Positions 9,171-55,697 of a stretch of 64,000 nucleotides of DNA are shown in pieces. The notes beneath the pieces were generated by a model. It saw only the letters and a list, made by a program, of their open reading frames with translations. It ran no database searches and had not been told where the DNA came from. How positions within the stretch are numbered: position 1 is the stretch's first letter; each line of letters opens with the position of its first letter. The DNA is from Squalus acanthias. Taxonomy: Eukaryota. The stretch spans positions 7,440,001 to 7,504,000 of the forward strand of contig CM059452.1 of NCBI GenBank assembly GCA_030390025.1, given 5' to 3'. Made by a program: the position numbers and the translations under genes.

Positions 9171-9210
9171 CACAAATACAACAGTTACTGAAAGAGTGAA
9201 TGTTTCTTAC

Positions 9211-9258
9211 CTGCAGTCACCGTCACCATGGTGCCTTGTCCCCAGTATTCGAGGTAGT
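9211..9258 (-). CDS. IGHJ: IgH J segment (YLEYWGQGTMVTVTA)
   Basis: WGxG motif, donor GTAAGA at 9210, upstream 23-RSS. Confidence 0.95.
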
Positions 9259-9297
9259 CACAGTGTTACATTCCCCGGGCTGGGTCACACAATAACC
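9259..9297 (+). promoter_or_regulatory. JH 23-RSS
   Basis: CACAGTG (9259-9265), 23-nt spacer, ACAATAACC (9289-9297). Confidence 0.93.
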
Positions 9298-9623
9298 GGC
9301 TCTGTGTAAAACAGACAGAAATCCAACATTAGTTTAAATATTCACATCCCAGAGGAAAAGTAAAGTCACGATGGATCTTCATAAAATGATGCATGTGTCA
9401 ATGGATACTTTTCACTCTTTATAAATTCCCTGATGTTTTATATTTCACAGAGTAACCCATGAACAGTTAATGAAATCACCAACTGATCAATGATTAATTA
9501 TCACAGTTTATCCATCTTAAGCTGTGCTAGTAGACAGTGCTGGACACAAATAGGATTTCACTGCATCGTCAGTTGGATTGTGAAAGCGAGCACTGACCCA
9601 GACTCACTCAATTAGTGCTGAGG

Positions 9624-9651
9624 GGTTTTTGTATTGACAGTAACTGCTGTG
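9624..9651 (-). promoter_or_regulatory. 12-RSS following the joined VDD
   Basis: On minus: CACAGCA, GTTACTGTCAAT (12 nt), ACAAAAACC. Confidence 0.92.
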
Positions 9652-9974
9652 CCACCCAGCACCGCTGTACTCTCTTGCACAGTAATAGATGACGGTGTCT
9701 TCGGTCCTCAGGTTCTTCATGTCCAAAGCGAAGATGCTGTTTGAAGTGTCTTTGGAGGCAGTAAATCGACTCTCAATCCCTGGGGCGTGATGCTTGTTCG
9801 ATGAACTGTAATATCTAACCAGCCACTCCAGCTCCTGTCCGGGAACCTGTCGGAACCAGTGCATGACGTAGCTGCCAAGGTCGAACCCGCTGGTTTTACA
9901 GGTCAGTCTCAGGGAGCCTCCGGGACTCCTGGTCTCTGCCTCTGGCTGAGTCAACACGACATCCGACTGGACAC
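9652..9974 (-). CDS. IGHV: IgM VH exon joined to D1 and D2 (VDD), open frame
   Basis: [11 protein letters not shown]...[23 protein letters not shown]...YYCAR followed by EYSGAGW. No 23-RSS after CAR; GTACAGCGGTG and CTGGGTGG directly abut the V. Confidence 0.9.
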
Positions 9975-10101
9975 CTGTAAAAACAATCAAAAACCCCGAG
10001 GATTAATCCTGGTGAAATGATTCCTGACTCTGTAACATTCCAGAGAGAGACTAACACTGAGACAGTAACAGTGAGAGACTTGGACAATAAAAACTACTCA
10101 C

Positions 10102-10147
10102 CGGATAAGAAAGCCAACAACAGACTGAGAGAAATCGCCGACCTCAT
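10102..10147 (-). CDS. IGHV: IgH V leader exon (MRSAISLSLLLAFLS)
   Basis: ATG, hydrophobic 15-codon stretch, phase-1 donor GTGAGT. Confidence 0.9.
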
Positions 10148-33405: not shown

Positions 33406-34873
33406 GATCCCCGACAATCCCAGCCAGTGTGGGCCTCTCCGGGTCGAGCTGATTTCCAATACTCTCTCCTTTGCTGGGAAGCTGATCCAGTATTTGCACT
33501 GAGCAGCTCGCGGCAATATTCTTCAATGACAAATCACGTGCTCCAGCTTTAACCAATCGGGACCGTCCGTTAACGGTCCTTGCGATGATTGGACATACGA
33601 GAGAGAGAGACACAGTTTGATTGGATAAATAGAAGTGGCATGTTAATTCATTCTCGGGCTGCAGGTGTCGCTGGCGAGGCCGCCTTTATTGCCGGTCCCC
33701 CGTTGCCCTGAAATGGTGAGTCCAGTCCAGTCCCACACCAATGTGGTTGACTCTTAGCTGCTTATGAAGCGGCCCAGCAAGACCGTCAGTTGTATCAGTG
33801 CAAGTAGAGATGGAAAGTACATGCCGGTCTTGTCAGCGACGTCCACATGAACTAAAAACATGAATAAAAAATGTTCCTGAACCAATTCAACACGTGACTG
33901 ACATCACCTCACACTGATCATTGTATCCGCTCCCCTTCCTTCACCGTCAGTGGTCGTTCATTAAAGGATATAGAATTCTCGGTGTCACCATCTTGCTTTT
34001 TAAACAAATATTGTGCCAATTTGGTGAGTTGACGGTTCCTCTGTGTTTCTGATCTTCACATCAGGAGTTGATTTCGATCGAACCCTTTTCCATTGCAATA
34101 ATTTCCGGCAGCCAACTGGTTCCTCATATACAGTTGACAAACTCCATCTGAAACTAAGGCGCGGACTTCACTGAGCGGAAGGGTGGAGTCCCGCCGCCCC
34201 CTGGTGGTTGACCCAGCATTGCACGCGGTGCTCCGGGACAGAATCTTAAGAAAATGCCAGATAACAATAAGAAAGGTGAATTTCGTCGTGTCCTGGCAAT
34301 TAGAGCTTAAAAAATAAATAAACTGCACTTGATAGAAAAGGTGATGCTAGTAACAGGAATAAAACAAGTTTCAAAATTTAGATGAGTCAAAATAACCATG
34401 ATAGGTTGTTTATTCAGATACAAATCAGACTAATTATCTAACTCAATGATTACTTGATCACACACCAGAAGTGTTTTGGGGAATCTAAACACACTGGATG
34501 AGGCTTTATGTAAATACAAAGTTTTGATCCTATTTGCTGCACACAATCAGTGCGTTCCCTCGGTGTTATAGACCTGCCGCTTGGTTTGCCTGGTGTGTAC
34601 AGCTCCTTGAACGGCTGGAACACAACGTCAAATTGTTTGGGCAGTCTTTCTGCCGCAATATCTTTTATTTATGAACTGGTATAAATTCTCTAAACACATC
34701 TTTTCACTATGTTCAGGAGCACCAGAGGAAAGTTTCCCCGATGCCTATCTGTTGCTCTCGGTTTGCTGTTTATTTGGGGTATTTTAAATCAGCACCTTCT
34801 GGTCACAAGTTTAGAAAGTCCCCGTTTCTCTCCACACTGCCCGCTGTCCCGTGACCTTGTCATGTTCCGGCAG

Positions 34874-35435
34874 TGTTTTTGTACGAGGCTCCCTCTGGTT
34901 CCTGTCACTGTGTCTCTCAGCCCGCAGTGATACACCGCGCTGTCAGACAGCCGCAGGCCGCCGATGGTGAATTCCCTCACTTTTCGAAGTGTCGAGAGAT
35001 GCGGAAAATCGAGCCCCCGCGCCCTCTGCTTTGGAAATATCCCCAGCAGAAGGGATGTAGATCAAGAATGTGGGGCCTTTGTCCCGATCCTGACGGTACA
35101 GTTGTAAGGAATAGAAAGTCTCAGTGGTCGAATAATTGTAATTGATGGTCACCGAGTCTCCTTCAAACTGCATCGCTCTACCCGGCCCCTGTGAGACCGA
35201 GTCTGCACCACTGACACCTGCAGAAATTTAGAAATACAGAACTGTAAGCTCTTACTGTCATTTTATTATAACTAATATAACAAAAGGTGACGGAATACAT
35301 GGCAAGTATAGAGAAACACAGTTAGAAGATTCTCTGTGTTAGTGACACTTGCAAGAGGAAGATTGTGTAACTTGTAAACTTACCCGTTAAGAAAGCTGCA
35401 ACTGAGACGAATGAATAAACTGAAAGAAACAACAT
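34874..35435 (-). pseudogene. TCR alpha/delta V pseudogene B
   Basis: Leader MLFLSVYSFVSVAAFLT at 35384-35435; V exon 34913-35217. First Cys is Tyr and FR3 is frameshifted; ends LSDSAVYHCGLR. RSS is CACAGTG-23-ACAAAAACA. Confidence 0.88.
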
Positions 35436-35569
35436 GTTTGCAGAGAGTTGAAACGGGATTTGAACAGAACGGATTGAACCTGTAATTGTTTTAGTCAAGA
35501 GTTGAGAAAATGTCGAGTAATATCCGGTCTCTATGCCGATTGGATCATTCCTGTTCGAGACAACAGGTG

Positions 35570-35690
35570 ACATCCAATCATCTCACCTGTGCTTTGTTCT
35601 CCAAATCAACCAATCAGCTCAGGTGTCCTTTGTTCTCCAATTCATCCAATCAGCTCAAAGGTCCTTTATTCGCCAGTTCATGACGTCAGA
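35570..35690. promoter_or_regulatory. Promoter-like motifs upstream of V B: three CCAATCA and a perfect CRE
   Basis: TGACGTCA at 35681-35688; CCAATCA at ~35574, 35610 and 35646. Confidence 0.5.
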
Positions 35691-36040
35691 GCGGGGAGCG
35701 GAGAATAAGGTGAAATTGTTCTCCTCATAACAGAGAATTAGACGGGAATTAAACCCAATGTTGGCCCATTAACAGGTCAGTCTCTGAGGTGTGGGCAGGG
35801 AAGGGAAATAGTTCATATTGTTCAGTGCGAGAGCGTCCAATTAAAAGAGTTGCTCACTGAGCATGAGAACTATTCGCTGCCGATATAAAGGGCGATATTA
35901 CGTATAATGACATAGAGTCTGCAGCACAGAAACAGGCCATTCGGCAAAACTGGTCTTTATAGTTTGGTTCCCGTTCTATTATCAGATCACAATCCAGGTC
36001 CCAAATCTGATTCATTGAGAGGGGATCGGAGTCCCTTGCT

Positions 36041-36502
36041 GTTTTTTGTAAGGACTGACTGCGCCCCTGTAACAGTGTGGAGTGCAGCGCACAGTGATAC
36101 ACGGCAGAGTCAGAGACATTTAAAGGAACCGTTTTTTTGTCTTGGTCCAAATCAGCAGAGAACTGGTCTGGGAAATCTGGAGACTTATTCCCCTGCCCCT
36201 TGCCGTATCTCTTCAGTAAATATCTCGGAGCTCCCCCGGGGTACTGGATGTACCAGAAGAGATAGGGAAAGTTATCGGATGTGGAGTAACTGCAGTTCAG
36301 TGTTATGGTCTGTCCTTCCTGAATCGTTAATTCAGATGGATTCTGCGACACTGAGTCTTCGCCACTCCTACCTGTAACAAAATACAGAATGTGTCAAAAG
36401 TGTGGCAGTAAATATAACCTATGGAACACACACTGACCCTTTAAACATGGACTCACCGGGCAGCACGACCATTATTATGAGTAAAGAACACGGGGAGCAT
36501 AT
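36041..36502 (-). pseudogene. TCR alpha/delta V segment C, probably defective
   Basis: V exon 36080-36371 (EDSVSQNP..LNCSYSTSDNFPYLFWYIQYPG...VPLNVSDSAVYHCAL) has a FR3 about 5 codons short. The leader frame (36457-36502) starts with ATA. RSS is CACACTG-23-ACAAAAAAC. Confidence 0.8.
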
Positions 36503-37371
36503 GGTGTTTGGATTGGAGTTCGACAGAAAATAGTAGATCGCTTTAAATATGTTAGTCCTTCTGTTCTTATATTAAAGTGTAAAGTCAAATCAGGGGCAGA
36601 CTTCACTTATTGGGACAATGAGGGACCGTGTCCCAGGGATAGGATTGGCTGGTCTCTCAGAACTGCCACCAGCTGTGCACCAATCAGTTTTAGTGGTGGA
36701 CCAATTACTGATGTCTACAAACCCTTTCCTTACCTAGCTCTGTGAGTGAGTCTCTCTCTCTCTCTCTCTCTCTCTCTGTCAGCCTCTCTCTCTCTCTGTC
36801 TCTGTCTCTCCCTCTCTCTCTCCCTCTGTCTCGTTGTCACTCACTCTGCTTAACTCGGTGTCTTTCTCACTCTCTCTTCTCTCTGTCTCAGCAAGGTTAA
36901 AGGCGAAAAATAATATAAATCAGTCTCAATCCCCGGCATCACTGAGCTTCCTCCACAGTCAATAAACTCCATTGCTAGTCATAGTCTTAAGACCACGAGC
37001 GATATGGCAAGTGGACCGCCCTCTGCACCAGTGAGGTATCTTTTAAAAAAGTGACCTGGCGGATCTGCATCATATCCAGGACTTTTACTTGTAGAGATCG
37101 ATCCTGTTATTCATCCCAGAGATCTGCAGGTTTGTACTAACACTGGGGTCTGAATTTGACCCTGGATTAAAATGGTTGAGAATAGTCACATTTACCAACG
37201 CTGACAGCACTGACCTTGACTAGTAAAAACCGCTCGGATCAGGCTTTATTTTCCCATTTACATTTTGCAGAAACTAATTGGGAATTAATCCCTGGTATTT
37301 TCCTGGAGCTCGCAATTGATGCTGAATTGTGCCCTGTTTTTGTGAGGACCGAAGGACCCTTATTCACTGTG

Positions 37372-37843
37372 GATCTCAGGGCACAGTAATACACGGCGCT
37401 GTCTGTGATCTTCAAGCCTTTGATGGATAAGTGAAAAATACCTTGTGTCCGGTTGAGATTTCCGCTGAAGTGTTCAAAATGCGCAGCCGTCTCGTTATTC
37501 CCGTAACTATCGTCTCTGAGCAGATACTGAGGGGCTTGCTGGGGATACTGGCGATACCAGAACAGGTTATAGCTTGTAGCTGAACCCGATACAGAGTAAC
37601 TGCAGGTTATTGTTGAATCTGCACCCTCTTCTGATCCGACTCCTTGTTCTGACTGGGACACCGAGTCTCTGTTACTCATCTCTGAAAATAAACAGCGGAC
37701 ACACAACGGGTTATACAGAGTAACAGAAAGAGAACAATAACCCAGAGATGAAGATGGGGATTGGAGAATGTTATAGGATGGTTCCAATATCACCGACCTG
37801 TGATCAGGACAATAACCAGAGTCAGGCAGAGTTTCACCTCCAT
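37372..37843 (-). CDS. TCR alpha/delta V segment D (open frame; leader 37798-37843, V exon 37372-37681)
   Basis: MEVKLCLTLVIVLIT, then DSVSQ...ITCSYS...LFWYRQYPQQAPQYLL...DSAVYYCALR. RSS at 37335-37371 has only a 21-nt spacer. Confidence 0.85.
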
Positions 37844-38079
37844 GGTTCCAGTCTGAACTCCAGAAACAAGAGATTGTGATCATTGCCTATACCGGGCTTG
37901 GAATGGGAGAAACTAAAGCAGCGCGGAGATGTCATCAGATCACTTTGGATTTCTTCTCCCCGCCCACTTGTATCGCTCCAAACAGTTAGTTCCTGCAGAT
38001 GCGGACCATTATCTTTAGCATGTGATCAGAGAACACCCTCTTGTGGACAGTACAATCATGACATAGTGCATTGGAAGCA

Positions 38080-39520
38080 CAGACAAACACACGCAGACAG
38101 ACACCCATACACAGAAATAGACACTCATACACACATACACAGACACAGTTACACCAACACCCACATACCCACACACACACAACACAGACACACATACACA
38201 GACACACTTACACCGAAACCCACATACCCACACACACAGAGACACAGACACGCAGACACTCATACACACACAGATACGCATGCACACATACACACAGACA
38301 CGCATACAGAGACACAGACACACATCTGTAGACACACACAGACAGACAGAAAGACACAGACACAGACAGACACAGGCAATATAAACCCAGATAAACAAAA
38401 CTGGTTCATGTGTTGTGGAGGAGAATTATTTATGTATTTACTTATTCGTTCATGGGATGTGGGCGTCACTGGCAAGGCCAGCGTTTATTGCCTATCCCTA
38501 ATTGCCCTACTGAAGGTGGTGGTGAGCCACCTTCTTGAACCGCTGCAGTCCGTGTGATGAAGGTTCTCCCACAGTGCTGTTAGGGAGGGAGTTCCAGGAT
38601 TTTGACCCAGTGACGGTGAAGGATCGGCGATATACTTCCAAGTCAGGATGGTGTGTGACTTGGAGGGGAACTTGGAGGTGGTGGTGTTCCCATGCGCCTG
38701 CTGCCCTTGTCCTTCTAGGTGGTAGAGGTCGCGAGTTTGAGAGGTGCTGCCGAAGAAGCCTAGGCGAATTGCTGCAGTGCATCTTGTATATGGACATGCA
38801 GCTCAGTTGTTTGAGACGAAAGATGTTGAAGAAGTGATCAGACAGCGCCCTCTTGTGTTCCTACAAGCCTCACCTAGGACACACAAACACAGAGACACAC
38901 ACATACCGACACAAACTCAGACAAATAAACTACACAGAAAAACATGCACAGATAAACGCAGAGACAGATAAACGCCGACACACACATTGATACAAACAAA
39001 CAGAGACTGATAAACACACAGACAAAAACGCACAGATAAACACACACAGACAGATAAAAACACACACAGAGACGCACATTCACCCTCACAAACGCAGACA
39101 TATAAGCACACAGAGACTAAAACGTAGACATAAACACAGACAGACAGACAGATAAAGACACAGAGAAACACATTTACACTCACAAAAACAGGCAGATAAA
39201 ACACACACAGACGCACACATACACACTCACAGACACAATCAGATAACCACACACAGACATACATTCTCACTCACAAACACAGAAATATAAACACGCACAG
39301 ACAAACACATAAACACAGACAGACAGACAGATCAACACTCACGGACAAACACATACAGACAAACACAGACAGACAGATAAACACACACAGACACACAAAT
39401 TCATACTCAAAAACACAGACAGATAAACACACACATAGACTCACATATTCACACTCACAGACACAGACAGTTAAACACAGACAGACAGATAAACACACAG
39501 AGAGATACAGACAAAAACGT
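38080..39520. repeat. CA-rich low-complexity tracts flanking a retroelement-like fragment (~38430-38800)
   Basis: ACAC/AGAC degenerate microsatellite at ~38080-38380 and ~38880-39520. Confidence 0.8.
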
Positions 39521-40076
39521 TCGAGAGTAAACTGTGGTTAATGGGAAACTCTGAGTTAGTGACGTTGCGACAACGTCGTGTCAGATTTTCATTTCTATCA
39601 AATGGAACTTTTCTCCTGCACAAGAAAACCATAAAATAGATTCCTCATTAATCGTGAGCAATGGCTTCAAAACACGGTTAAATTGGGAATCCTTTTGAAG
39701 AATAAACCTGAATCGAAGGGATTTCTTCCTCCTTCCGTGCAGTTCTGGGATGTGTCCGTGACATTGTGGGTGAGGCCGTTAACGGTCAGACAGAATCCTC
39801 ACCCATTCCCGGGATCGGATGATCAGATGTTCGGAACAAAGCAGAACAGCTCACGGAGCCTGTGTGCCGGGGCCGCGGGCAGTGATGATGGACACAGACA
39901 GCGACAATAATCAGCGGCAGATCATTGAAACCAGGCTCTTGGTTTGATTCAGGAAATGACGGGGACTCCGTGTGCTGACAGAAACACTTCAAATCTCCTC
40001 TTCAGTCCGAAAGCTGCAACTGAGAGGAGGCACCGGGTGAAGTGCGGTATCCCAGTGCGGGGAAACTGCGGCCATT

Positions 40077-43000
40077 GTGGAATTTGGGGTTTTCGTTATT
40101 TGGGGCCTAACAGCGTTGTTATTTGGTTGGTTAATTTATTTCTACATCTGTGTCTGTCTGTCCATTCCACTATTTACACAACTGTCTTCAATTCATCGAG
40201 CTCGAGGTCTATCCACCTATCTGTTAACGTATCTGTCTGTTTTTGTGTGTGTCTCTCTCTGACTGTCTCTCTCTCTCGCTCTCTGGCCATTTGTCTGTCT
40301 GTCTATCTGCCTGCCTGCCTGCCTGCTTTTCTGTTTGTCCCTCTCATGTCTGTCTGCCTCTCTGCCTCGCTGTCTGTCAGTTTCTATGTCTATCTATCTG
40401 TTAATACACCTGTCTATCTATATCTAGCCATTAATCTGTTACTTTCTCTTTCTGTCTCTTTGTCTCTCTGTGTACACACAGAGAGATAGACAAATATATT
40501 CTCAAAGAAAGAGGAACATGTGATCTGTTATCAATCTGTTTCCATGGGTAACCTGGAATGTTCTCTGCAGGACTGAGGTCTGGAGATTCCGCCGAGCAGT
40601 GGCGAAGCAAAGCCCAATATCTGGAAGGAACCTCGATGAGCATTAATTGTAACTATTCAACCTATGAACACAGCTATTATCTCGAGCTTTATCGTCAAAA
40701 CCAGAATAAGGCTCCGACTCTGATAATTCGAGTACATTCTTTTGGAAAGGAAGTAGTTAACGGACGTTTCTGTGTCATTCTGGAAAAGTTGAAAGCTGTC
40801 GCTGAGTGCAGATCGGAACAGAGTGTTAAACTACGAGTTTGGTGAGTGAGGGAGTAAATCTTAAAGGTTAATCTCTTATTGTTATAAATTCTAGTCTTGT
40901 GTGCTTGCAATTAGCATTTAAATTTACTGTTTCAAGTTTTATGTTTCTTCCAGGCTTGGGCAGGGCGAAGCAAGCTCTGTGCTGGAGAGCAGGTGAGAGT
41001 AATTAATTAATTAAGAGGTCTAATCTGGTTCTGTAACTGCCAGAGAGCTCACTTATTTAAATCTCAGCAGTATAAACAAGGGAGGCTAGAGTGCAGTTTG
41101 TCACGTAGTGCAGATCGGAACAGAGTGTTAAACTGCGAGTTTGTTGAGTGAGGGAGTGCGGGGAGGGAGGTGTTCCTTTCTTTTTCAATCTTTGTTAACT
41201 TCCAGGAGAGCAGGAGCTAAAAAGCTGCACAAGAGGGGACAGAGAACCAGCGGTGAGTACTCTACAGTATCTCTACATTCTAGTCATTAAAGTAAAAGTA
41301 AGGTCTCTAGTTTGGAGTAAGTAGTGTTTAAAGGGAAGTAAGGTCCCTAGTGTATTTAATATTCTTTAATTTAAAGGGAGTAAATTAAGGGTAGGACATG
41401 GCAGGGCAGCTCGGCAACGTGGAGTGCTCCTCCTGTGCTATGTTGGAAATCAGGGACACTTTAGGTGCCCAGAGCGAACACATGTGCAGGAAGTGTCTCC
41501 AGCTGCAGCTACTCGAAATCCGCGTTTCGGAGCTGGAGCTGCGGCTGGAGTCACTGTGGAGCATCCACGAAGCTGAGATCTTCGTGGATAGCACGTTTAA
41601 CAAGGTGGTCACACCGCAGGTAAAGAGTGCACAGGCAGACAGGGAATGGGTGACCACCAGACAGAGTAAAAGAACTAGGAAGGTAGTGCAGAAGTCCCCT
41701 GGTCCGTCTACCTCTCCGACAGATTTTCCGTTTTGGATACTGATGGGGGAGAGGGTTTCTCAGGGGAATGCAGCAAGAGCCAAGTCCGTGGCACTACGAG
41801 TGGCTCAGCTGCACAGGAGGGGATGAAAAAGAGTGGGAGAGCAATAGTGATAGTGGATTCGATCGTAAGGGGAACAGATAGACGTTTCTGTGGCCCGCAG
41901 ACGTGACTCCAGGATGGGATGTTGCCTCCCTGGTGCCAGGGTCAAGGATGTCACTGAACGGCTGCAGGGCATTCTGAAGGGGGAGGGCGAACAGTCAGAG
42001 GTCGTGGTTCACATTGGTACCAACGACATGGGTAGAAAGAGGGATGAGGTCCTGCAACAAGAATTTAGGGAGCTAGGTAGCAGATTAAAAAGCAGGTCCT
42101 CAAAGGTTGTAATCTCTGGATTACTCCCGGTGCCACGTGCTAGTGAGTATAGGAATAGAAGGATAGAGCAGATGAATGCGTGGCTAAAGAGTTGGTGCAG
42201 GAGGGAGGGCTTTAGTTTCCTGGATCACTGGGTCTGCTTCTGGGGAAGGCGGGACCTGTACAAGTTGGACGGGTTGCACCTGAACCGGAACGGGACCAAC
42301 ATCCTTGCGGGGAGGTTTGCTAGTACTGTTGGGCGGGGGTTAAACTAACTTGGCAGGGGGATGGGATACGGAGTGGAGCTATAGTAGGGGGTGATGCACA
42401 GCCAAATATAGAGCAAAAAACAAGTCAGCCTGGAAGGCAGAGTAAATATGTAACGGCACAAGGGAGTATGGCAAGGCTGGATGGCATTTATTTTAATGCA
42501 AGGAGTCTTGCGAGTAAGGCAGATGAATTGAAGGTGTTGATGAACACGTGGGAGTATGATATTGTTGCTATCACAGAGACATGGTTGAGGGAGGTGCAGA
42601 ACTGGCAGCTCAATATTCCGGGGTATAGAATCTTCAGGCGAGACAGAGGGGGGTGTAAAAGAGGAGGGGGTGTCGCAATATTAATCAAGGAGTCAATTAC
42701 TGCTGTAAGGAGGGATGATATCTTAGCAGGTTCCTCTAATGAGGCCATATGGGTAGAACTTAAAAACAAAAAGGGGACAAGCACTTTGCTGGGAGTGTAC
42801 TATAGGCCCCCAAACAGTCAGGGGGAGAGAGAGAGGAACAGATATGTAGGCAAATCTCAGAGATGTGTAGAAATAATAGGGTAATAATAGTAGGGGATTT
42901 CAACTTCCCCAATATTAACTGGAATTGTCAGAATGTGAAAGGCTTAGAGGGCGCGGAATTCTTAAAGTGCATCCAGGAGAGCTTTTTGAGCCAGCATGTA

Positions 43001-45454
43001 GAAAGTCCTACAAGAGAGGGGGCGGTACTGGACCTAATTCTTGGGAATGTAGCCGGGCAAGTGGAAGAAGTGTTAGTAGGAGAGCATTTTGGTGACAGTG
43101 ACCTTAACTCGGTGAGATTTAAGGTAGTCATGGAAAAGGACAAAGATGGACCGGAGATAAAGGTTCGAATATGGGGGAAGGCCGATTTTAATATGATAAG
43201 GCAGGATCTGGCCAAAGTGGACTGGAATCAGCTACTTGTAGGAACATCCACATCAGAGCAGTGGGAGTCTTTCAGAAAGGAAATAGAGAGAGTACAACGG
43301 CAGCATGTTCCCGTAAAGGTCAAGGGTGGGACCAACAAGCCCAGGGAACCCTGGATGTCAAGGGATATACGAGAATGGATTCGAAAAAAAGGGAGCCTTT
43401 TGGCAGATACAAAGGACTAAAAACAGTGGAAGCCCTAGAGGAGTATAGAAAGTGCAGGGGGGTACTTAAAAAAGAAATTAGGAGAGCGAAGAGGGGGCAT
43501 GAAATAACACTGGTGGGCAAAATAAAGGAAAATCCCAAGGTGTTTTATAAGTATATTAAGGGCAAGAGGATAACCAGGGAAAGAGTAGGGCCCATTAGGG
43601 ACCAAAGTGGCAATCTGTGTGTAGAGCCGGAAGATGTAGGTGGGGTTTTAAACGAATATTTTGCATCTGTGCTCACTATGGAGAAGGACGATGTAGGCAT
43701 AGAAATCAGGCAGGGGGATTGTGATATACGTGAACAAATTAGTATTGAGAAGGTACTAGCGGTTTTAGCAGGCTTAAAAGTGGATAAATCCCCAGGCCCA
43801 GACGAGATGTATCCCAGGCTGCAGTGTGAGGCAACGGAGGAGATTGCAGGGGCTCTGACACAAATTTTCAGAACCTCCCTGGCCACTGGGGAGGTGCCAG
43901 AGGACTGGAGGACAGCTAACGTAGTACCATTATTCAAGAAGTGTAGTAGGGATAAACCAGGGAATTACAGGCCAGTGAGCCTAACATCAGTGGTAGGGAA
44001 ATTGTTGGAAAAAATTCTGAGGGACAGAATTAGTCTCCACCTCGAGAGGCAAGGATCAATCAAGGATAGTCAGCATGGCTTTGTCAGGGGGAGATCATGT
44101 CTGACCAATTTGATTGAATTTTTTGAGGGGGTGGCTAGATGTGTGGATGAAGGTAGTGCAGTTGATGTGGTCTACATGGACTTCAGTAAGGCTTTTGACA
44201 AAGTCCCACATGGGAAACTGGTCAAGAAGGTAAAAGCCCATGGGATCCAGGGCAACTTGGCACATTGGATCCAAAATTGGCTTAGTGGCAGGAGGCAGAG
44301 GGTGATGGTCGAAGGTTGTTTTTGTGACTGGAAGCCTGTGTCCAGTGGTGTACCGCAGGGATCGGTGCTGGGTCCTTTGCTGTTTGTAGTGTACATTAAT
44401 GATTTAGATATGAATGTAGGACGTATGATCAGTAAGTTCGCAGATGACACGAAAATTGGTGGAGTGGTAAATAGCGAGGAGGGAATCCTTAGGCTACAGG
44501 ACGATATAGACGGGTTGGTTAGATGGGCAGAACAGTGGCAAATGGAATTTAACCCTGAAAAGTGAGGTCATACATTTTGGGAGGACTAACAAGGCAAGGG
44601 AATACACAATGAATGGTAGGACCCTAGGAAGGACAGAGGATCAGAGGGACCTTGGTGTACATGTACATAGATCCCTGAAGGCAGCAGGACAGGTAGATAA
44701 GGTGGTTAAAAAGGCATATGGGATACTTGCCTTCATTAGCCGAGCCATGGAATATAAGAGCGGGGAGGTTATGATGGAGCTGTACAAAACGCTAGTTAGG
44801 CCACAGCTGGAATACTGTGTGCAGTTCTGATCGCCACACTATAGGAAGGATGTGATTGCATTGGAGAGGGTGCAGAGGAGATTCACCAGGATATTACCTG
44901 GGCTGCAGCGCTTCAGCTATGAAGAGAGACTGGACAGGCTGGGGTTGTTTTCCTCAGAGCAGAGAAGGCTGAGGGGGGACCTGATTGAGGTGTACAAAAT
45001 TATGAGGGGCATATATACGGTAGTTAGAAAGGAACATTTCCCCTTAGTAGAGGGGTCAATAACCAGGGGGCATAGTTTCAAGCTAAGGGGCAGGAGGTTT
45101 AGAGGGGATTTGAGGAAAAACTTTTTCACCCAGAGGGTGGTTGGAATCTGGAACTCACTGCCTGAAAGGGTGGTAGAGGCAGGATCCCTCACAACATTCA
45201 AGAAGCATTTAGATGAGCACTTGAAACGCCATAGCATACAAGGCTACGGACCAAGTGCTGGAAAATGGGATTAAAATAGACAGGGCTGGATGGCCGGCGC
45301 GGACACGATGGGCCGAAGGGCCTCTTTCTGTGCTGTATAACTCTATGACTCTATGACTCACCCTGACTGAGCTGTAGCTCGCTGACAGCGCCGTGTACTA
45401 CTGTGTACTGAGGCCCGCAGTGAGAAGAGCCTCTGCTCACCTCGTACAGAAACC
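40077..45454 (+). pseudogene. TCR alpha/delta V pseudogene E, split by a CR1 LINE
   Basis: Leader-like (GTG)EFGVFVIWGLTALLF at 40077-40125. V 5' part 40571-40805 (GDSAEQ..INCNYST..LYRQ). V 3' part 45357-45415 (LTLTEL*LADSAVYYCVLR). RSS is CGCAGTG-23-ACAGAAACC at 45416-45454. Confidence 0.85.
40806..45358 (+). mobile_element. Full-length CR1-clade LINE (5'UTR with tandem monomer, ORF1 zinc-knuckle/SGNH esterase, ORF2 APE+RT); frameshifted
   Basis: ORF1: CSSC..CRKC, LPGARVKDV, VHIGTND, DGLHLN. ORF2: AITETWL, GDFN, NYRPVSLTS, MDFSKAFDKV, GVPQGSVLGP, KFADD. Ends in an (ACTCTATG)n tail. Confidence 0.95.
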
Positions 45455-46146
45455 GTGTTCTGTGAGATCAGCTTGAAGAAGCTACTTTAAACCCGGCCAC
45501 CAGGTAGCGCTGATAGAGCGCGGATTTGCACCGCCGGGCACCTTACATCAACCAATACTGACTGACACTTCCTCAAGATAAATTAACGTGAAATTCCGTT
45601 TTATTTAATATTTCTGCTCATTAATGTTATGCAATTCCTTACAGTATAATACATTCAAAAGTTAGTGAAGTGTTAACGATCTATTCGCCTGCAGATCCTT
45701 GGGATCTGTTGCCGTTTTGTTTCATTTCCCACCGCTAGTTTCAGCCTGTGGTTTTAACCCACTTCACTGATGAAGATTTCGTTAACTATTGAATAATAAA
45801 ATAATCCTACAATTCCTGTCACGAGTCTACTTGCCCCGAATTTGTAACGAATGTGAAAGTAACGCAGCCCTTATCGAGAGGCATAGTTCTATCATTTCCG
45901 AAGGGGACATTATTATTGAATTCAGTTCCTCACAGGTGGATCCCACGTGTGACAACATTGCCCCGGCAGCCCCGCCCACAACTTCGGTTTGCTGCTCTCG
46001 CTCTGACCCGCCTTGCCTACTCTGTGTTATTGGAGAGATTGCTGCCGCTGTTCCCTGTTTGGCATTGGTTGGATCAGCAGTGCAGTGGGGCGGGGATCTG
46101 TATTTCTGCTCCGACAGAGGATTTCCCGGACTGCAGAGTTACAGAC

Positions 46147-46654
46147 ATCTTGCGAAACCGACTCGCACCGCTCCTCATCATTATATCACTTCTCAGTAAG
46201 TCTTTCCTTCCCAGTGAAAACCCTTCTCCCCCGACTGCTGTAACTCAGATGTTATTATTGAAAAAATGATGTTGATGATGATGGTGACAATTGCTATTAT
46301 TTTATTTTAGGATGGAGCCAGTAAGACACAGTGGAACAGCCGGTCCCTGAAATTACAGTTGAAGAGGAAAGTAATGTCACTCTAACCTGCACCTTAAAAA
46401 CAAGCTGCCCTAACCCTGTTGTGTTCTGGTACATTCAGCACCCCGGGCAGCCTCCACAGTATGTGGTTTATATTATTGCAGAAATAGTAAACGGGAACCC
46501 CGACTTCACTGACAGACTCTCTTCTACGTTTAATAAAATTACCAAGATTACCGAGCTAACGATCGGCAAAGCCCTGATCTCCGACACCGCCTTGTATTTC
46601 TGTTCCATGGAGTCGACACTGCTGCAGAGATACAGCGAATCCCGGACAAATCAC
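46147..46654 (+). pseudogene. TCR alpha/delta V pseudogene F
   Basis: Leader-like stretch (no ATG) RNRLAPLLIIISLL ends at donor 46196. V exon starts at 46311 with an in-frame TAA (46322-46324), then DTVEQ...LTCTLKTSCPNPVVFWYIQHPG...DTALYFC. Degenerate RSS GACACTG. Confidence 0.82.
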
Positions 46655-47829
46655 ACACTGAGAGTTCCAGTTAACACTCACCAGAGGGCGCTCTCACCCC
46701 GATAAACAGAAGCGACAATTCAGCCTCCACAGTGAGAGTCACAGGAACCTTCTTAAAAGGACAACAAAACAAAACACTCAACAATTGGTGAGGTCCACTG
46801 GCGCAATGATATTGCCTGGTGATTATTTACACCCATTTATAATTTAAAAATAACTTCACAAATCCAATCTGGCGCCTTACCTCCCCTTTTGTCTTTCGAT
46901 GCCCTTTCCTTGCCTGCCTGTCCCTTCTCATATCTTGTCTCTACTCTTCACTCATAATCCTGTGAGCTTCCGCCTTCCAGTCTTTAGTTTAACGATGTAA
47001 AACCTTTGCTGCTTCTCTATACATTTATTCAGCAGCACCAACCCAGCTTCCCAAAAACAGGAACTGCAGACAGGGCAGTGAATAAAAACAGGATTTCTCA
47101 CCCTGTCCACCGACATCTGAACAGTTCTCAGAATATCCATAGAGGGCGTCAGGTCTCAATATTCCTTTTGTGGATCAGACCAAGGGGCTTTGAGTTAAAT
47201 GCTGATTCTCCAATAGTTGTGCAAATGCTGGAATGAATTCAAAATTAATATTTGAAATCCACTTGCCACAATGGGCTGGGTCTGTACGTCGGGCAATAAT
47301 CATCACAAAAAGACACCCATCATATCAAAGGATTGATTTCTGGTACTAACCAGTGGGCAGCACCAGTGAGTGGAAGGGTGTGGAAGATGGGGAAAGGAAT
47401 ATTAAAATGTGAATGCAAGGCACAACCTGAGAACTGATTTCTGAATCCATTAACTGTACTGATGACGGAGATCGATGTTAAAGGGGTGAAAAACAAACTG
47501 AAACCGCCTGTATTGCGTTTCATTTTCTGCGCCACATCCTTTTCTGATATGAGTGAAAGTTGTAAGGAGTGTTTCACGCCCTGCTGGTGTTGAGCTCTTG
47601 TTATCGAGGACCCGCCCTACACCTCATCCTGGGGGCTTTGAACCCGCTCCCCCGCTCTGCTCCCGGGCACTTTAAGCAGATGAGCGGTAAATTACTGAAA
47701 GGCGCGGATGCGCAACTGCCTCCATTCTCTCTTATTGCAAATCCAAAATCTGAAGATTATGGATCCCTAAATGAATCATTACAGATCACACTCATCACCA
47801 CACCTAAGCAGGTCACACTGACCAGATAA

Positions 47830-48190
47830 AAAGAAAGTAAGCATTTATATAGCGCATTTCACGTCCCACAGTGCTTTAGCTCCAATGAAGTACTTTTGGA
47901 GTGTAGTCACTGTTGTAATGTCGGATGCGTGGCAAACAATTGCGCACAGCAAGCTCCCACAAACGGCATTGTGATAATGACCAGATATGCTGTTTCAGTG
48001 ATGTTGATTGATGGATAAGTATTTGCCAAGACACCGGGGATAACTCCCCTGCTCTTCTTCGAAATAGTGTCATGAGATATTTTATATCAACTTGAGAGAT
48101 CAGACTGGGCCTCGGTTTAACGTCTCATCCAAAAGCCCGCACCTCCGACAGTGCAGCACTCCCTCAGTACTGCACTGGAGTGGCAGCCTA
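47830..48190 (-). mobile_element. SINE-like element
   Basis: GCATTTATATAGCGC...GGGCCTCGGTTTAACGTCTCATCC...GACAGTGCAGCACTCCCTCAGTACTGCACT. A related opposite-strand copy lies at ~49320-49510. Confidence 0.6.
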
Positions 48191-49877
48191 GACTTGATCC
48201 CACAACCTTCTGACTCACTGGCGCGAGTACCAGCACTGAGCCACACAAGACACAAGATAACAAGATGATATTTTTCACACTCAGTACCATTCTAAAAGTA
48301 GGAATTTTTAACAATTGATATTTGCATCAACTGATGCTTACAGCGTAACTGCGGCATTGTAGTGTTTCAGCACAGCTCCCACAATATCACCGTTTTGATG
48401 TTAATTATGGTTCTCTACAAGGATTTAATGGAATGTACTGTGAGACTACACATCAAGATCAATATCTTCAAAATTAGCAGCAAATCCAGTTCTCAAAGTA
48501 ATCATTGCTCTGCGTGGGCCATCTTCAGTGCCCCATACATTATGGCAAGTCCCATGACACAGTTCAGTGCTCTGAGCAAAAGGTGGCTATAAGGTATTAA
48601 CTTTTCGGTTCAGTTCCATGCTGAACTGTGAATCGGTGGGCAGGCAAAGGTTATTTAAAATGTCAGATGGGCAGCTGTATTGCGTGGGGCTGAAAAAAGG
48701 CCAATTTATGATTCTACAGGTCTTTAGGACCCTGCGGCAGCCCATCCGGCGGTGCTGAGCTCACGATTCAAGGCTCTGTCCAACACGGCCATCTTTGTGT
48801 GACGTACAGTCGGCCATGTTTCTGTGACGCATTGTGTGACGTACAGTGCATCTGCGGCCCTTAACTCGCCTTTTGTCCTTTGATGTCCTTTCCGTGCCTG
48901 CCTTCAATATTGTGCGGCCCTTTGCACATCTCCCCTGTTAGTGTCCCGGACCCTTTGATCGCGGCCTGTACAATGGTTTATTTGATCAGAGTATGTTGCT
49001 GGGTCAGAGGCAGTTTATACAAAATGAATAGATTTCACAATGTAGTGACTGTGCTCTTTAAAACAAGCCCCAAGCACAAAGTTCCTGCAATGTCGATTTG
49101 CCTTCCGAGTAACGCTTCATTCTCTGTCACTGCACCTGGAAACTCTGAATATTAGAGACCTTGAAATCAATCATTAGTTAATTGAAACATCTTTTAATTG
49201 GAAACCATAGAAGGGGGCGGTGCAGGAAGTATTTGTTTAAATTACAGAGAGATTTAATCTTTGTGTACAATATCTATATCTGCCTGTATATTGAAAATGG
49301 CCCTGGACTGTCTCATGTTATAATCTGACACTCAGTTGCTGGACTGAGGGAGTGCTGCAGGGTCGGTGGAGCCGTCCTTCGATCAGACGTTTAACCGAGG
49401 TCTCCAGCCCGTTCAGCAGGATGTTAAAGAATCCCCGGCACTATTGGAATAAGAGCGGGGGATTCTGCCGGTGTCCTGGGCCCACATTCCACCCTCAATA
49501 AACACCACACAATAAAACACATGAACCGACCTCCCAGCTTATTACTGTGGGGCAAAGGCGGGCGGCAGTCTCTGCTGACAGAACAACTTCACCCTGTATA
49601 TCAGACTAATGTGGGAGGGGCTTTCACATCGGGTTCAGAGACCCAATGAAGCCCCAGAAAACTGCAATTTCATTATTTAAACCTGTCGCGTATTCACACA
49701 ACTCACAGCCAGAGATCCGGGAACCGTGAGGCCCATCAATGTTCACCGGGGCACCGCCCTGTGCTAATTACCTCGATCCAATAAAGTCCAGCTTTGAGGT
49801 ACAGTCCCCCAGAACAGTCCAGGGCTGCAGTCTCCAGCTCCCCGTCATATAAACCATCAGCTCCAGGCAGCAGAACG

Positions 49878-49920
49878 ATGGGAATCCTCCTTGTTTTCAC
49901 CCTGTGTGTCTGTTTACCCC
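49878..49920 (+). CDS. NAR-TCR V leader exon (MGILLVFTLCVCLP)
   Basis: TATAAA at ~49849, ATG, hydrophobic leader, phase-1 donor GTGAGT. Confidence 0.88.
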
Positions 49921-50066
49921 GTGAGTACCGTTCAAACAAACCGACATTGTGTGGATTTAATATAAAGCTGCCCGGGTCCATCAAATTGCAGACACAGTCT
50001 GGATTTTAGCCCCGTTGTGTGGTTCGGCTCTGATGGCCAATTAAACTCTCTTTGTTTAATTTCCAG

Positions 50067-50357
50067 GCTCTTTCAGTAATTCAGTGACACAGACCCCGCC
50101 AGCGGTGACCAGGAAGGAGTGTCAGTCCCTCACCATCACCTGTGTTTTCTATGGTGGTTATTCTTTACGCAATGGACATTTCTTCAGACAAACCCAGACC
50201 GGGACAGAGTGGGAGCGGATCTGGAGCGGAGGGCAATTTTTTGTGAGGACGGATACGGCAGAAAATAAATTTTGGCTGGAAATTCGGGATGTGCGAGTTG
50301 AAGACAGCGCCACCTATTACTGTAAAGCTGGGTACACAGACCAATTTACTGGATCCT
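50067..50357 (+). CDS. NAR-TCR V domain, apparently joined to D
   Basis: VTQTPPAVTRKECQSLTITC...FFRQTQTGTEWERI..GGQF...EIRDVRVEDSATYYCKA then GYTDQFTGS. Short VNAR-like domain lacking CDR2, with an extra FR1 Cys. Confidence 0.88.
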
Positions 50358-50385
50358 CACAGTGGATAAGACCTGAGCAAATTCC
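50358..50385 (+). promoter_or_regulatory. 12-RSS after NAR-TCR V(D)
   Basis: CACAGTG, GATAAGACCTGA (12 nt), GCAAATTCC. Confidence 0.75.
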
Positions 50386-50702
50386 TGTGTACAATGAAAA
50401 TATAAAATTCCCCGGGCCCGGAACCTGAATTGTAGGTTTGATCTTATTATCGCTGTAATCTAGTTTAATTTCATTGTAATTTCCTGCTTTCAGTTATCTT
50501 TCTTTGCAATTTTCTCCATTTATATGAAGCGCCCATCTCTGGCCCGTGTTCCTGGGCCATTTTACTGAGAGCTCAGATTCTCACAAACAACAGTTTGAAC
50601 CGACGGGGACTGTGGAACACGGAATATTGTTTATTGATCCCTGGAATAATTGGGCAGCGCCGACTGTCTGGTGATGTGTGTCCGGCAGATTGAGGTGTCG
50701 GT

Positions 50703-50789
50703 GGTTCTTGTACCGGGGTGACCGAGAGCGGTGTCACTGTGGTTATTATTATGTGGATGGATCCGGGACGGTGGTGACTGTCACAGCCG
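50703..50789 (+). CDS. NAR-TCR J segment (coding 50742-50789, YYYVDGSGTVVTVTA) with 23-RSS
   Basis: GGTTCTTGT-23-CACTGTG, DGxGT motif, phase-1 donor GTAAGT. Confidence 0.9.
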
Positions 50790-51287
50790 GTAAGTGACTC
50801 CAAACCCCGCCGTGTGACAGACTGTCCCGGTTAATGTTCACCGTCAGTTTATTATTGTGATCAGTATCACCTCCATCTCTTCAAAATAAAACAGAGCGTT
50901 TTTTTAAGGGTGGGGGGAGTTCATTGCGGTTTTAGATTGGGGAGCAGAATATGAACCGGCTGTCGACTACCTGTGTGAGTCCGGAGAGAGGAGGTGTCAG
51001 AACCCATTCGAGAGGGTCTGACCCCATCTGGAGCATCATTCGTTTAACTGGTACCTCGTGGATCCCATGAGGTGCCCGGACTCTCTCTCACTCTGATCCC
51101 CAGTTGGTTTAAATGAGCGCAGATTGTCGACACTCCGGCCTCCATTCTCGGTGTTAACTGTGACTGAGGGAGCTCAGTCTGTCCCTGTGAGCAGGGCAGG
51201 GGGTCACAGAGCTCTGTCCTGGGTAGGAGATTGCAGTCCGAGCCGGGCAGTGTGAATGAGCTACCGGGAGAGTGAACCCAACACTAC

Positions 51288-51445
51288 AGCGGCCTCCGAT
51301 ACCTGCAGCGGCCTGTCCGAAACCTGCCGTTCGATACCTGCAGCGGCCTGTCCGATACCTGCCGTCCCATACCTGCAGCGGCCCCTCCGATACCTGCAGC
51401 GACCCGTCCGATACCTGCAGCGGCCGGTCCGATATCTGCAGCGGC
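51288..51445. repeat. ~21-bp GC-rich tandem repeat (~7 copies)
   Basis: CCGATACCTGCAGCGGCCTGT units. Confidence 0.85.
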
Positions 51446-52790: not shown

Positions 52791-53743
52791 TAAATCTCAG
52801 AGAAAACTCCGCCCGGAGAACACGGGAGAGAATCAGCCAATGGGCTGAAGGAATTGAAGTTGTCAGAGAGCCGGAAGAGCCAGTTTCCAGTGAGTAACAG
52901 TAAAACCACTGCGGAAACTGCACAGACTGAACCCAACCGACAACCGAGAGACTTTGGGACAAGTTCTCAGGCTGGCAAAAAACCACAAACAGCACAAAGT
53001 GAGCGACCCAGATGTAGAAATAAAATAAAACTACTGTAAATAATTCAAATTAAAGTGAAATGGAACAAACGGGCACCACCGATGGAAGAAAAGAGACAAA
53101 TAGAGCGAGAGGCAGAAAGGAGCTCCCGTGAAGTATTAAACTGCATAAAAGATTGACCTTTGACCCACAGATTTTCAGTGTTAGTTTGGCTCAATCGGTG
53201 CTGATGAATCTCACTGCTTTCTGTTGGATCTTTCTGTGCGCAGTGACATTACACAGCCGGGTTACTCTCGGTCAAACATCATTGGAATCTCGTTGTCTCA
53301 GTGAGGAGGAGAATGGACTATTATTTTTTTCGGGTTTATCTTTCAACAAGAAAAATAAAAACAGAAATTCAATAGAAATCACAGAATGATACAGAAGAGA
53401 AGGAGATCATTCTGCCCACCTTGCCTGTGCGGCTCTTTGAAGGAGCTATTCAATTAATCCCACTCGCCCCGCTCTTTCCCCATAGCCCTGACAAATTTTC
53501 CCTTTCCAATTTCCTGTTGAAAGTTACTATTGAATCTGCTCCCACCACTGTTTCAGGCAGTGCATTTCCAGATCACAACGGCTCACTGCGTAAATACCCC
53601 TCTGCCCCCCCCCCCCCCCCCCCCCCCCCACCCCACGCCGGTGAATAGCATTAGCGCGAGAGGCAGAACTATTCCTGTGATTGACAAGTGTCCCCGGGTA
53701 AAAACCAGCCAAATAAATAACATTCTCCCATTTAATCCTGCAG

Positions 53744-54049
53744 ATTCCAGTTTCTCGGTATCCCAGGGTCCGCCTCTGCAATACTCTGCTGCCGGTGACA
53801 CCGTTGCTTTAAGCTGCGAATATACAGGGATCTGTCAGTACACAGTACACTGGTACCGTCAGTCCCCAGGGCAGGCTCCGAAATACCTGCTTCAGAGAAA
53901 CACTTCAGGAGAGGGGAATAACGAAAACGCTGCCGGGGGCCGAATTTCTGCTTCTGTCGATGGTGCGCAGAAAATCAGGCGGTTAAACATCGCGAAACTG
54001 CAACTGAGTGACTCCGCTGTGTATTACTGTGCACTGAGTCCGCGCACAG
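53744..54049 (+). CDS. Leaderless NAR-TCR supporting V-delta
   Basis: Acceptor cctgcag is phase-compatible with the NAR-TCR J donor. DSSFSVSQGP...LSCEYTGICQYTVHWYRQSPGQAPKYLL...LSDSAVYYCALS has an extra CDR1 Cys. No leader was found between J and this exon. Confidence 0.9.
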
Positions 54050-54088
54050 CACAGTGATACAGAGCACGGAGAGAGCCGTGCAAAAACC
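54050..54088 (+). promoter_or_regulatory. 23-RSS of the supporting V-delta
   Basis: CACAGTG, 23-nt spacer, GCAAAAACC. Confidence 0.92.
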
Positions 54089-55697
54089 TGAACATGGTGG
54101 CGATTACAGACACAGTGTGACACAGAGCACGGAGAGAGTTCACAAACCTGAACATGGTGGGGATTACAGACACACAGTGATAGAGAGCACGGAGAGAGTT
54201 CACAAACCTTAACATGGTGGGGATTACACACAGACAGTGATACAGAGCACGGAGAGAGTTCACAAACCTGAACATGGTGGGGATCACAGACACACAGTGA
54301 TACAGAGCACGGAGAGAGTTCACAAACCTGAACATGGTGGGGATTACAGGCACACAGTGATACAGAGCACGGAGAGAGTTCACAAACCTGAACATGGTGG
54401 GGATTACAGACACACAGTGATACAGAGCACGGAGAGAGTTCACAAAACTGAACATGGTGGGGATTACACACACACAGTGATACAGAGCATGGAGATAGTT
54501 CACAAACCTGAAAATGGTGGGGATTACAGTCACACAGTGATACAGAGCACGGAGAGCGTTCACAAACCTGAACATGGTGTGGATTACAGACACACAGTGA
54601 TACAGAGCACGGAGAGAGTTCACAAACCTGAACATGGTGGGGATTACAGACACACAGTGATAGAGAGCACGGAGAGAGTTCACAAACCTTAACATGGTGG
54701 GGATTACACACAGACAGTGATACAGAGCACGGAGAGAGTTCACAAACCTGAACATGGTGGGAATTACAGACACACAGTGATACAGAGCACGGAGAGAGTT
54801 CACAAACCTGAACATGGTGGGGATACAGACACACAGTGATACAGAGCACGGAGTGAGTTCACAAACCTGAACATGTTGGGGATTACAGATACACAGTGAT
54901 ACAGAGCACGGAGAGAGTTCACAAAACTGAACATGGTGGGGAATACACACACACAGTGATACAGAGCACGGAGAGAGTTCACAAACCTGAACATGGTGGG
55001 GATTACACACACACAGTGATACAGAGCACGGAGAGCGTTCACAAACCTAAACATGCTGGGTATTACAGAGACACAGTAATACAGAACACGGAGAGAGTTC
55101 ACAAACTTGAACATGGTGGGGATTACAGTCACACAGTGATACAGAGCACGGAGAGAATTCACAAACCTGAACATGGCATGGATTACAGACACACAGTGAT
55201 AGAGAGCACGGAGAGAGTTCACAAACCTGAACATGATGGGGATTACAGACACACCGTGATACAGAGCACGGAGAGAGTTCACAAACCTGAACATGGTGAG
55301 GATTACAGACACACAGTGATACAGAGCACGGAGAGAGTTCACAAACCTGAACATGGTGAGGATTACAGACACACAGTGATACAGAGCACGGAGAGAGTTC
55401 ACAAACCTGAACATGGTGTGGATTACAGAGACACAGTGATACAGAGCACGGAGAGAGTTCACAAACCTGAACATGGTGGGGATTACAGACACACAGTGAT
55501 AGAGAGCACGGAGAGAGTTCACAAACCTGAACATGGTGAGGATTACAGACACACAGTGATACAGAGCACGGAGAGAGTTCACAAACCTGAACATGGTGGG
55601 GATTACAGACACACAGTGATAGAGAGCACGGAGAGAGTTCACAAACCTGAACATGGTGAGGATTACAGACACAGAGTGATACAGAGCAAGGGGAGAA
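54050..55697 (+). repeat. Tandem array of 60-bp units, each an RSS-like copy (~27 copies after the native RSS)
   Basis: Unit CACAGTG-ATACAGAGCACGGAGAGAGTTC-ACAAACCTG-AACATGGTGGGGATTACAGACA. Confidence 0.95.

Follow-up and report, generated by a model that had tools for sequence, protein, structure and literature searches.

We find in Squalus acanthias a NAR-TCR cassette whose V and D segments are already fused in the assembled genome, the inner recombination signals having been removed at their exact borders. In the account that we hold with good confidence, the fusion is almost certainly inherited and likely the work of RAG in germ cells, and only a VD-to-J rearrangement would still be needed. 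NAR-TCR is the doubly rearranging TCR-delta of cartilaginous fish. The cassette lies in a 64,000-nucleotide stretch of DNA, here called the window (assembly GCA_030390025.1, CM059452.1 positions 7,440,001-7,504,000, forward strand; the contig is labelled C29 in this analysis, and positions given without a contig label are those of the window).

The cassette reads on the plus strand, starting with a leader exon (49878-49920; MGILLVFTLCVCLP) that ends in a phase-1 GT donor and forms one open frame with the V exon across a retained leader intron (49921-50066). The VNAR-like V exon core (50067-50329) ends in YYCKA at 50329 and is followed by a V coding tail that is probably untrimmed by comparison with the tails of unjoined paralogues (50330-50343), a single junction base A (50344), a complete D segment (50345-50357), and the D's own 3' 12-RSS, CACAGTG-12-GCAAATTCC (50358-50385; heptamer 50358-50364, nonamer 50377-50385). 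A previous interpretation of this DNA, made from its letters and hereafter the sequence-only reading, had described a frame running 28 nt past YYCKA into a CACAGTG-12-nonamer, and 50330-50357 is indeed an uninterrupted 28-nt frame that leads directly into this 12-RSS. It had also reported no convincing 23-RSS after the V and no separate RSS-flanked D before the J; our RSS scan of the V-to-J interval likewise returns only the D 3' 12-RSS and, 317 bp beyond it, the J 23-RSS (50703-50741, minus strand; CACAGTG-23-ACAAGAACC as read on that strand). The J segment (50742-50789; YYYVDGSGTVVTVTA) has a phase-1 GT donor at 50790. We considered CACAGAC at 50335-50341, with a 23-nt spacer, as a cryptic 23-RSS and rejected it, with mismatches at four of its nine nonamer positions.

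The V is closest to IgNAR V: at E 1e-13 to 1e-10, shark VNARs are its best single-domain matches in the PDB, and the higher scores of three multi-domain antibody constructs come only from summed partial matches. The exon lies above the Pfam V-set cut-off. It has the hallmarks listed for NAR-TCR V in the account of PMC1845163, namely a leader (MGILLVFTLCVCLP), an a-b loop cysteine (KECQ), and no tryptophan in the WYRK motif, which is replaced by FFRQ; its CDR1 is three codons shorter than in most paralogues. As in the NAR-TCR described in the relevant parts of PMC1845163, PMC6795676, and PMC12227049, this VNAR-like V has its own D and J with 12/23-compatible signals, the D being present but fused, and lies upstream of a V-delta with a CDR1 cysteine and without a working leader. 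In contrast to that system, the V and D here are prefused, so that the tip domain needs one rearrangement and not two. The supporting V-delta exon is intact (53744-54049, plus strand), carries its CDR1 cysteine in CEYTGICQY, and is followed by a 23-RSS at 54050-54088; the leader-like remnant upstream of it (53204-53270, plus strand) is crippled, with a weak donor and no strong in-frame one. In the nine other remnant-bearing paralogues this remnant contains an in-frame TAA, which is TTA in the two copies of the present VD join and leaves both with an open peptide up to the weak donor.

Other elements of the window were recorded alongside. A 60-bp tandem repeat (54050-55696, 27.4 copies) begins at the heptamer of the supporting V-delta, each unit containing one heptamer and a degenerate nonamer, and similar arrays of varying length lie downstream of paralogous supporting V-delta exons. 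More TCR-type V exons are found at about 37380 (minus strand), 45400, and 46600 (both plus strand), one of them fragmentary and interrupted by stops and another carrying a degenerate signal, all within a block that is duplicated at C29:8.83-8.85 Mb. At 9210-10120 on the minus strand, the frame of an IgH-type VH runs directly up to a 12-RSS, and some 350 bp further downstream lies a JH with a 23-RSS; this is apparently a germline VD-joined IgH segment among TCR V genes.

We conducted a census of NAR-TCR V copies in the same genome, using a DNA search and two pattern searches and reading every copy individually. It yielded 30 copies (29 by pattern and one on C1780), of which half are unjoined (15/30) and half joined (15/30). 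An intact RSS-flanked D is present in 13 of the 15 unjoined copies and lost in the other two, and a J accompanies 12 of the 13. In the unjoined layout, a V tail of 13-20 nt is followed by CACAGTG-22-nonamer, and the D, of 13-16 nt, lies 379-391 bp after the V heptamer with a 12-RSS on each side; these 13 paralogues exclude the possibility, raised with the sequence-only reading, that a long V end with a 12-RSS is the normal state. That reading had expected a 23-RSS after an unjoined V, and a V signal does exist in the paralogues, but its spacer measures 22 nt.

Aligning the cassette to these unjoined copies assigned the V end to 50343, the junction A to 50344, and the D to 50345-50357. The tail at 50330-50343 matches that of unjoined C29:8194026 at 12 of 14 nt, its final 8 nt equal the tail of unjoined C29:6804778, and V tails end in CCA in 10 cases out of 19. 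The D, whose core the sequence-only reading had called correctly, shares 12 of its 13 nt with the commonest unjoined D (found in 6/13 copies), a match with a chance of 6e-7 at a fixed position. The V RSS, the V-D spacer, and the D 5' RSS are all missing, leaving the V tail, the A, and the whole D with an ordinary D-J spacer downstream, and the V-D spacer of an unjoined paralogue has left no trace in the whole window by blastn (best E at least 0.25). Both inner signals and the spacer, an interval of ~390 bp, were lost precisely at the coding borders; the leader intron was kept, and the junction is free of signal sequence, with one added base and no microhomology.

Judging from these alignments, the non-templated part of the junction is probably this one base, although up to nine bases could be N additions had the ancestral V tail been shorter, since the variable tails of the paralogues (13-20 nt) leave the V/N border movable. 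The A is what a P nucleotide from an untrimmed D end would give, and P inserts occur only at untrimmed ends according to a portion of PMC2193153; a base drawn at random would have an even chance of agreeing with one of the two possible P bases, which makes the A weak evidence for a hairpin. The peptide fixed by the junction is GYTDQFTGS plus one base, and the open frame reads CKAGYTDQFTGS plus one base. The idea of a V-N-D joint fixed in the germline is supported, with the adjustment that the junction is V, probably a single further nucleotide, and a full D; similarly, the hard-wired CDR3 given as GYTDQFTG is present in frame as a fixed stretch, but is longer by a serine and a base.

The joined sequence is repeated elsewhere in the genome. 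The same junction, with one synonymous difference, recurs 1.34 Mb away, on the opposite strand at C29:8832634, as part of an inverted duplicate of at least 17 kb that spans 34163-51443 of the window at 97.3-99.4% identity with indels. The two joined copies differ by 13 substitutions across 2.7 kb surrounding the cassette. Compared along 560 bp of V region, the twin is 99.5% identical and the nearest unjoined V 93.9%, the nearest unjoined D-J spacer is 97.1% identical, and none of the 30 V copies in the assembly is an unjoined twin above 94%.

We further searched four public DNA runs (X1, X2, X4, and X7), which are not defined by tissue and of which X1 or X2 may be the source of the assembly. 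In X2, one 78-nt contig (50307-50384) bridges the junction with 37 and 40 letters on its two sides, at a depth of 16.4 compared with 11.8-22.5 for other single-copy X2 pieces, and position 50341 shows only the letter of the second copy. X1, which has the organism code of X2 and comes from another sample and study, was read to about 55%; it shows the window's letter at 50341 with a depth of 88, a value for that position and not for a span across the junction. One X1 piece reaches 50355, where a doubled GATC leads into unrelated letters, apparently a ligation artefact of the library. X4 and X7, from two other organisms in one study, contain the VDJ junction of a five-copy set letter for letter (depths 8.7 and 25), and the DJ junction of a four-copy set is found in X2. 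Contigs of X4 and X7 have no cover at 50341 and, showing presence only, say nothing about an absence of the VD join there.

That the join is inherited in the germline is, on this sequence evidence, close to certain. Since the tissues of the runs are unspecified and one run may be the assembly source, the strongest case for inheritance is the duplication and the divergence that followed joining. The competing explanation, in which lymphocytes in the sequenced tissue contributed a somatic V-D rearrangement that the assembly took for germline, draws on the unspecified tissue of the assembly and on a little-trimmed junction that could recur somatically, but it would have to accommodate two diverged copies 1.34 Mb apart with a common junction, substitutions common to both in the D, spacer, and nonamer, the lack of any unjoined twin above 94% among the 30 V copies, and single-copy depth in X2. 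The last of these and the recurrence of the junction in diverged copies already make an assembled somatic join very unlikely, and taken with the rest we give it almost no weight.

As to the cause, we consider RAG highly probable, because both signals were excised at their exact borders while the leader intron was kept, as RAG cleavage followed by end joining would give. In the pertinent portion of PMC2193156 on germline-joined light chains of the nurse shark, retained coding ends and the loss of all signal sequence identify germline joins, and the present junction agrees with that analysis. The ancestral layout, still seen in the paralogues, was V/22-RSS, 12-RSS/D/12-RSS, and 23-RSS/J. The comparison shows that the V RSS, the spacer, and the D 5' RSS were lost exactly, and we propose that this came about in the germline when RAG cut the DNA, the hairpins were opened, and the ends were joined. 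The joined cassette was then duplicated within the inverted block of at least 17 kb and has gained substitutions since, as the two copies attest. In T cells, the D 12-RSS is predicted to pair with the J 23-RSS and the resulting VDJ exon to splice to a rearranged supporting V-delta, with diversity coming from a single junction and a tip-domain CDR3 that would start with a fixed AGYTDQFTG.

A deletion independent of RAG, through microhomology or unequal crossover at the common CACAGTG heptamer, appears highly improbable. The locus is rich in duplications, the heptamers are identical, V tails and D have short motifs in common, and D-like sequence at the ends of two unjoined V tails points to exchange at that place; however, a heptamer-to-heptamer crossover would remove the D, which is whole, both breakpoints of the ~390-bp interval fall on signal/coding borders with an added base and no microhomology, and the VD, DJ, and VDJ joins all obey the 12/23 rule. 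Reinsertion of a processed, rearranged transcript, for which marsupial TCR-mu offers a precedent (PMC7615758, in the part concerned), is refuted by the retained intron and signals, and we regard it as scarcely credible: the cassette still has its leader intron and upstream region as well as the D 3' RSS, the D-J spacer, and the J RSS, each collinear with the paralogues.

Germ-cell RAG activity, the cause we favor, can also be considered in the light of the other joins of the locus. The 15 joined copies comprise five VD joins (three junctions), four DJ joins (one junction), and six VDJ joins (two junctions), and each of these six junction types obeys the 12/23 rule. The VD join described here arose separately from a fully joined VDJ of this genome, whose junction we confirmed. 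On C29 alone, 10 of 22 copies are joined; the remaining eight copies sit on small contigs and may include haplotigs. We treat the three VD joins as independent because their junctions and D types differ; in our trees many forks are unsupported, the joined pair is placed among the unjoined copies with weak support, and the branches starred there are compatible with a single origin of the VD label. Trimming and GC-rich inserts are seen in other joins of the locus. V frames are broken in the four DJ-joined copies and in one of the five VD-joined copies, and of the two copies of another VD join one is frameshifted.

Several of these loci have features of their own. The DJ join occurs at C29:9343330, C449:774456, C210:68567, and C1780:312216, in each case behind a frameshifted V with its RSS. 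C29:9032341 (L046) is a single-copy in-frame VDJ join with a trimmed D and a long G-rich insert of the kind TdT would add. The last 11 nt of the unjoined V tails at C29:6887445 and C29:8867959 (L023 and L033) are the same as the 3' part of the D, but a V-type 22-RSS and then a normal D come next; the two could be old VD joins in which a hybrid joint or conversion at the heptamer restored a V signal. Among the cassettes on C29 (L021-L038), V 3' tails span 13-20 nt and J 5' ends extend 14-24 nt before the conserved core, both varying strongly in length and sequence among copies otherwise 92-97% identical, which could reflect germline open-and-shut processing of coding ends. Five tandem units (C29:6804778/6809478, 7891923/7896537, 8194026/8200688, and 8601299/8596620; C3620:44907/38687) consist of an unjoined or VD-joined NAR cassette, 4.6-6.7 kb, a fully joined VDJ exon, and one supporting V-delta. 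Their order resembles that of marsupial V-D-J-V-mu-j, and the splice phases would allow an upstream VDJ to be spliced onto the joined exon, giving a putative four-domain chain.

Whether the VD-J cassette is in use today is a separate matter; we think use slightly more likely than not. The frame is open through leader, V, and D, the J and the supporting V-delta are intact, and an untrimmed VD-J join would be in frame, with one base left on the D and two leading on the J. The remaining 12-RSS and the J 23-RSS are 12/23-compatible and the heptamer is perfect. At position 7 the D 3' nonamer departs from GCAAATACC, the form carried by 12 of 13 unjoined copies; it has one mismatch more than theirs, and the same change is present in the VD join on C3620. 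According to a mammalian assay in PMC12711392, as far as the account concerned extends, the main nonamer contacts are at positions 4-6, a motif outside which the changed base falls. Outside CDR1, the two joined copies have in common five replacement changes (two of them Ser to Trp) and one silent change that are absent from 12 unjoined V, with a pN/pS of about 0.9 compared with about 0.5 among unjoined V; with only six common changes this ratio does not separate drift from selection, and the pattern fits relaxed constraint as well as selection.

The cassette could instead be a real germline join that is now a decaying relic, rarely or never rearranged or expressed, a neutral by-product of leaky germ-cell RAG spread by segmental duplication. 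This is a serious contender, to which we give a little under an even chance, and it is compatible with the layout, exact loss, RAG, and duplication steps proposed above. The additional nonamer mismatch, the neutral-like 5:1 ratio of replacement to silent changes, and the broken V frames of other joined copies speak for it. Set against these are the open frames, both canonical cysteines, the a-b loop cysteine, and the splice sites kept in both copies, together with the perfect heptamer, an in-frame CDR1 deletion, the intact supporting V-delta in both copies, and the position of the nonamer change. We more tentatively entertain a stronger proposal, which we think rather doubtful as a whole: that the NAR-TCR array of this shark lineage is a repeated target of germ-cell RAG, which would have left six or more inherited joins belonging to three kinds, one of them shared between species, and that the VD-J cassette is a selected, expressed, semi-invariant receptor for innate-like or early-life gamma-delta T cells.

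Partial germline joins (VD-J, VD-DJ, and VDJ) have long been known in shark IgH clusters, as stated in parts of PMC5192425 and PMC2193153. Those clusters and the joined NS4 light chains (PMC2193156, in the portion cited above) resemble the present case in exact signal loss, a retained intron, what is probably little or no N addition, and several independent events beside unjoined copies, but the cassette here is TCR-delta-associated. Marsupial TCR-mu V-mu-j is also a TCR V with a germline junction in a three-domain chain; as characterized in that part of PMC7615758, it is fully joined, invariant, attributed to retrotransposition, and forms the membrane-proximal supporting domain, whereas the join here is partial and lies in the distal antigen-binding domain with intron and signals kept, and is thus not of the V-mu-j type. 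The pre-joined TRD V-J of Pleurodeles waltl differs, in the section of PMC12698447 that treats it, in being a complete V-J with no D and no leader, with a conventional V-delta, and in one haplotype. We found neither a germline-joined NAR-TCR nor a partially joined TCR in the literature searched, including portions of PMC12227049, PMC5931798, PMC6795676, and PMC5278385, a scope that excludes the founding NAR-TCR paper and a 2021 review; one supplement file of PMC3964593 gave no match for the terms searched, and its other supplements may bear on novelty. Provisionally, then, a partial join in a TCR cassette is new for TCR, while the half-joined state is already known for shark antibodies. The sequence-only reading had called it unusual for a shark TCR segment, which agrees with this literature but not with the locus, where joining is common.

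With inherited VD, DJ, and VDJ joins in its NAR-TCR cassettes, a TCR-delta locus would be added to the targets of germ-cell RAG activity, and unjoined sister copies at 92-97% identity allow each junction to be dissected. The fixed CDR3 start is a ready marker by which one NAR-TCR lineage can be followed in repertoires; this could help to establish what NAR-TCR recognizes and when it is used. T cells using the joined cassette would begin with part of the antigen-binding loop fixed. If the proposal of a selected receptor were true, the cassette would provide an antibody-like tip domain whose surface residues are remodelled and whose CDR3 start is hard-wired, and would be a T-cell counterpart of the neonatal germline-joined Ig of sharks.
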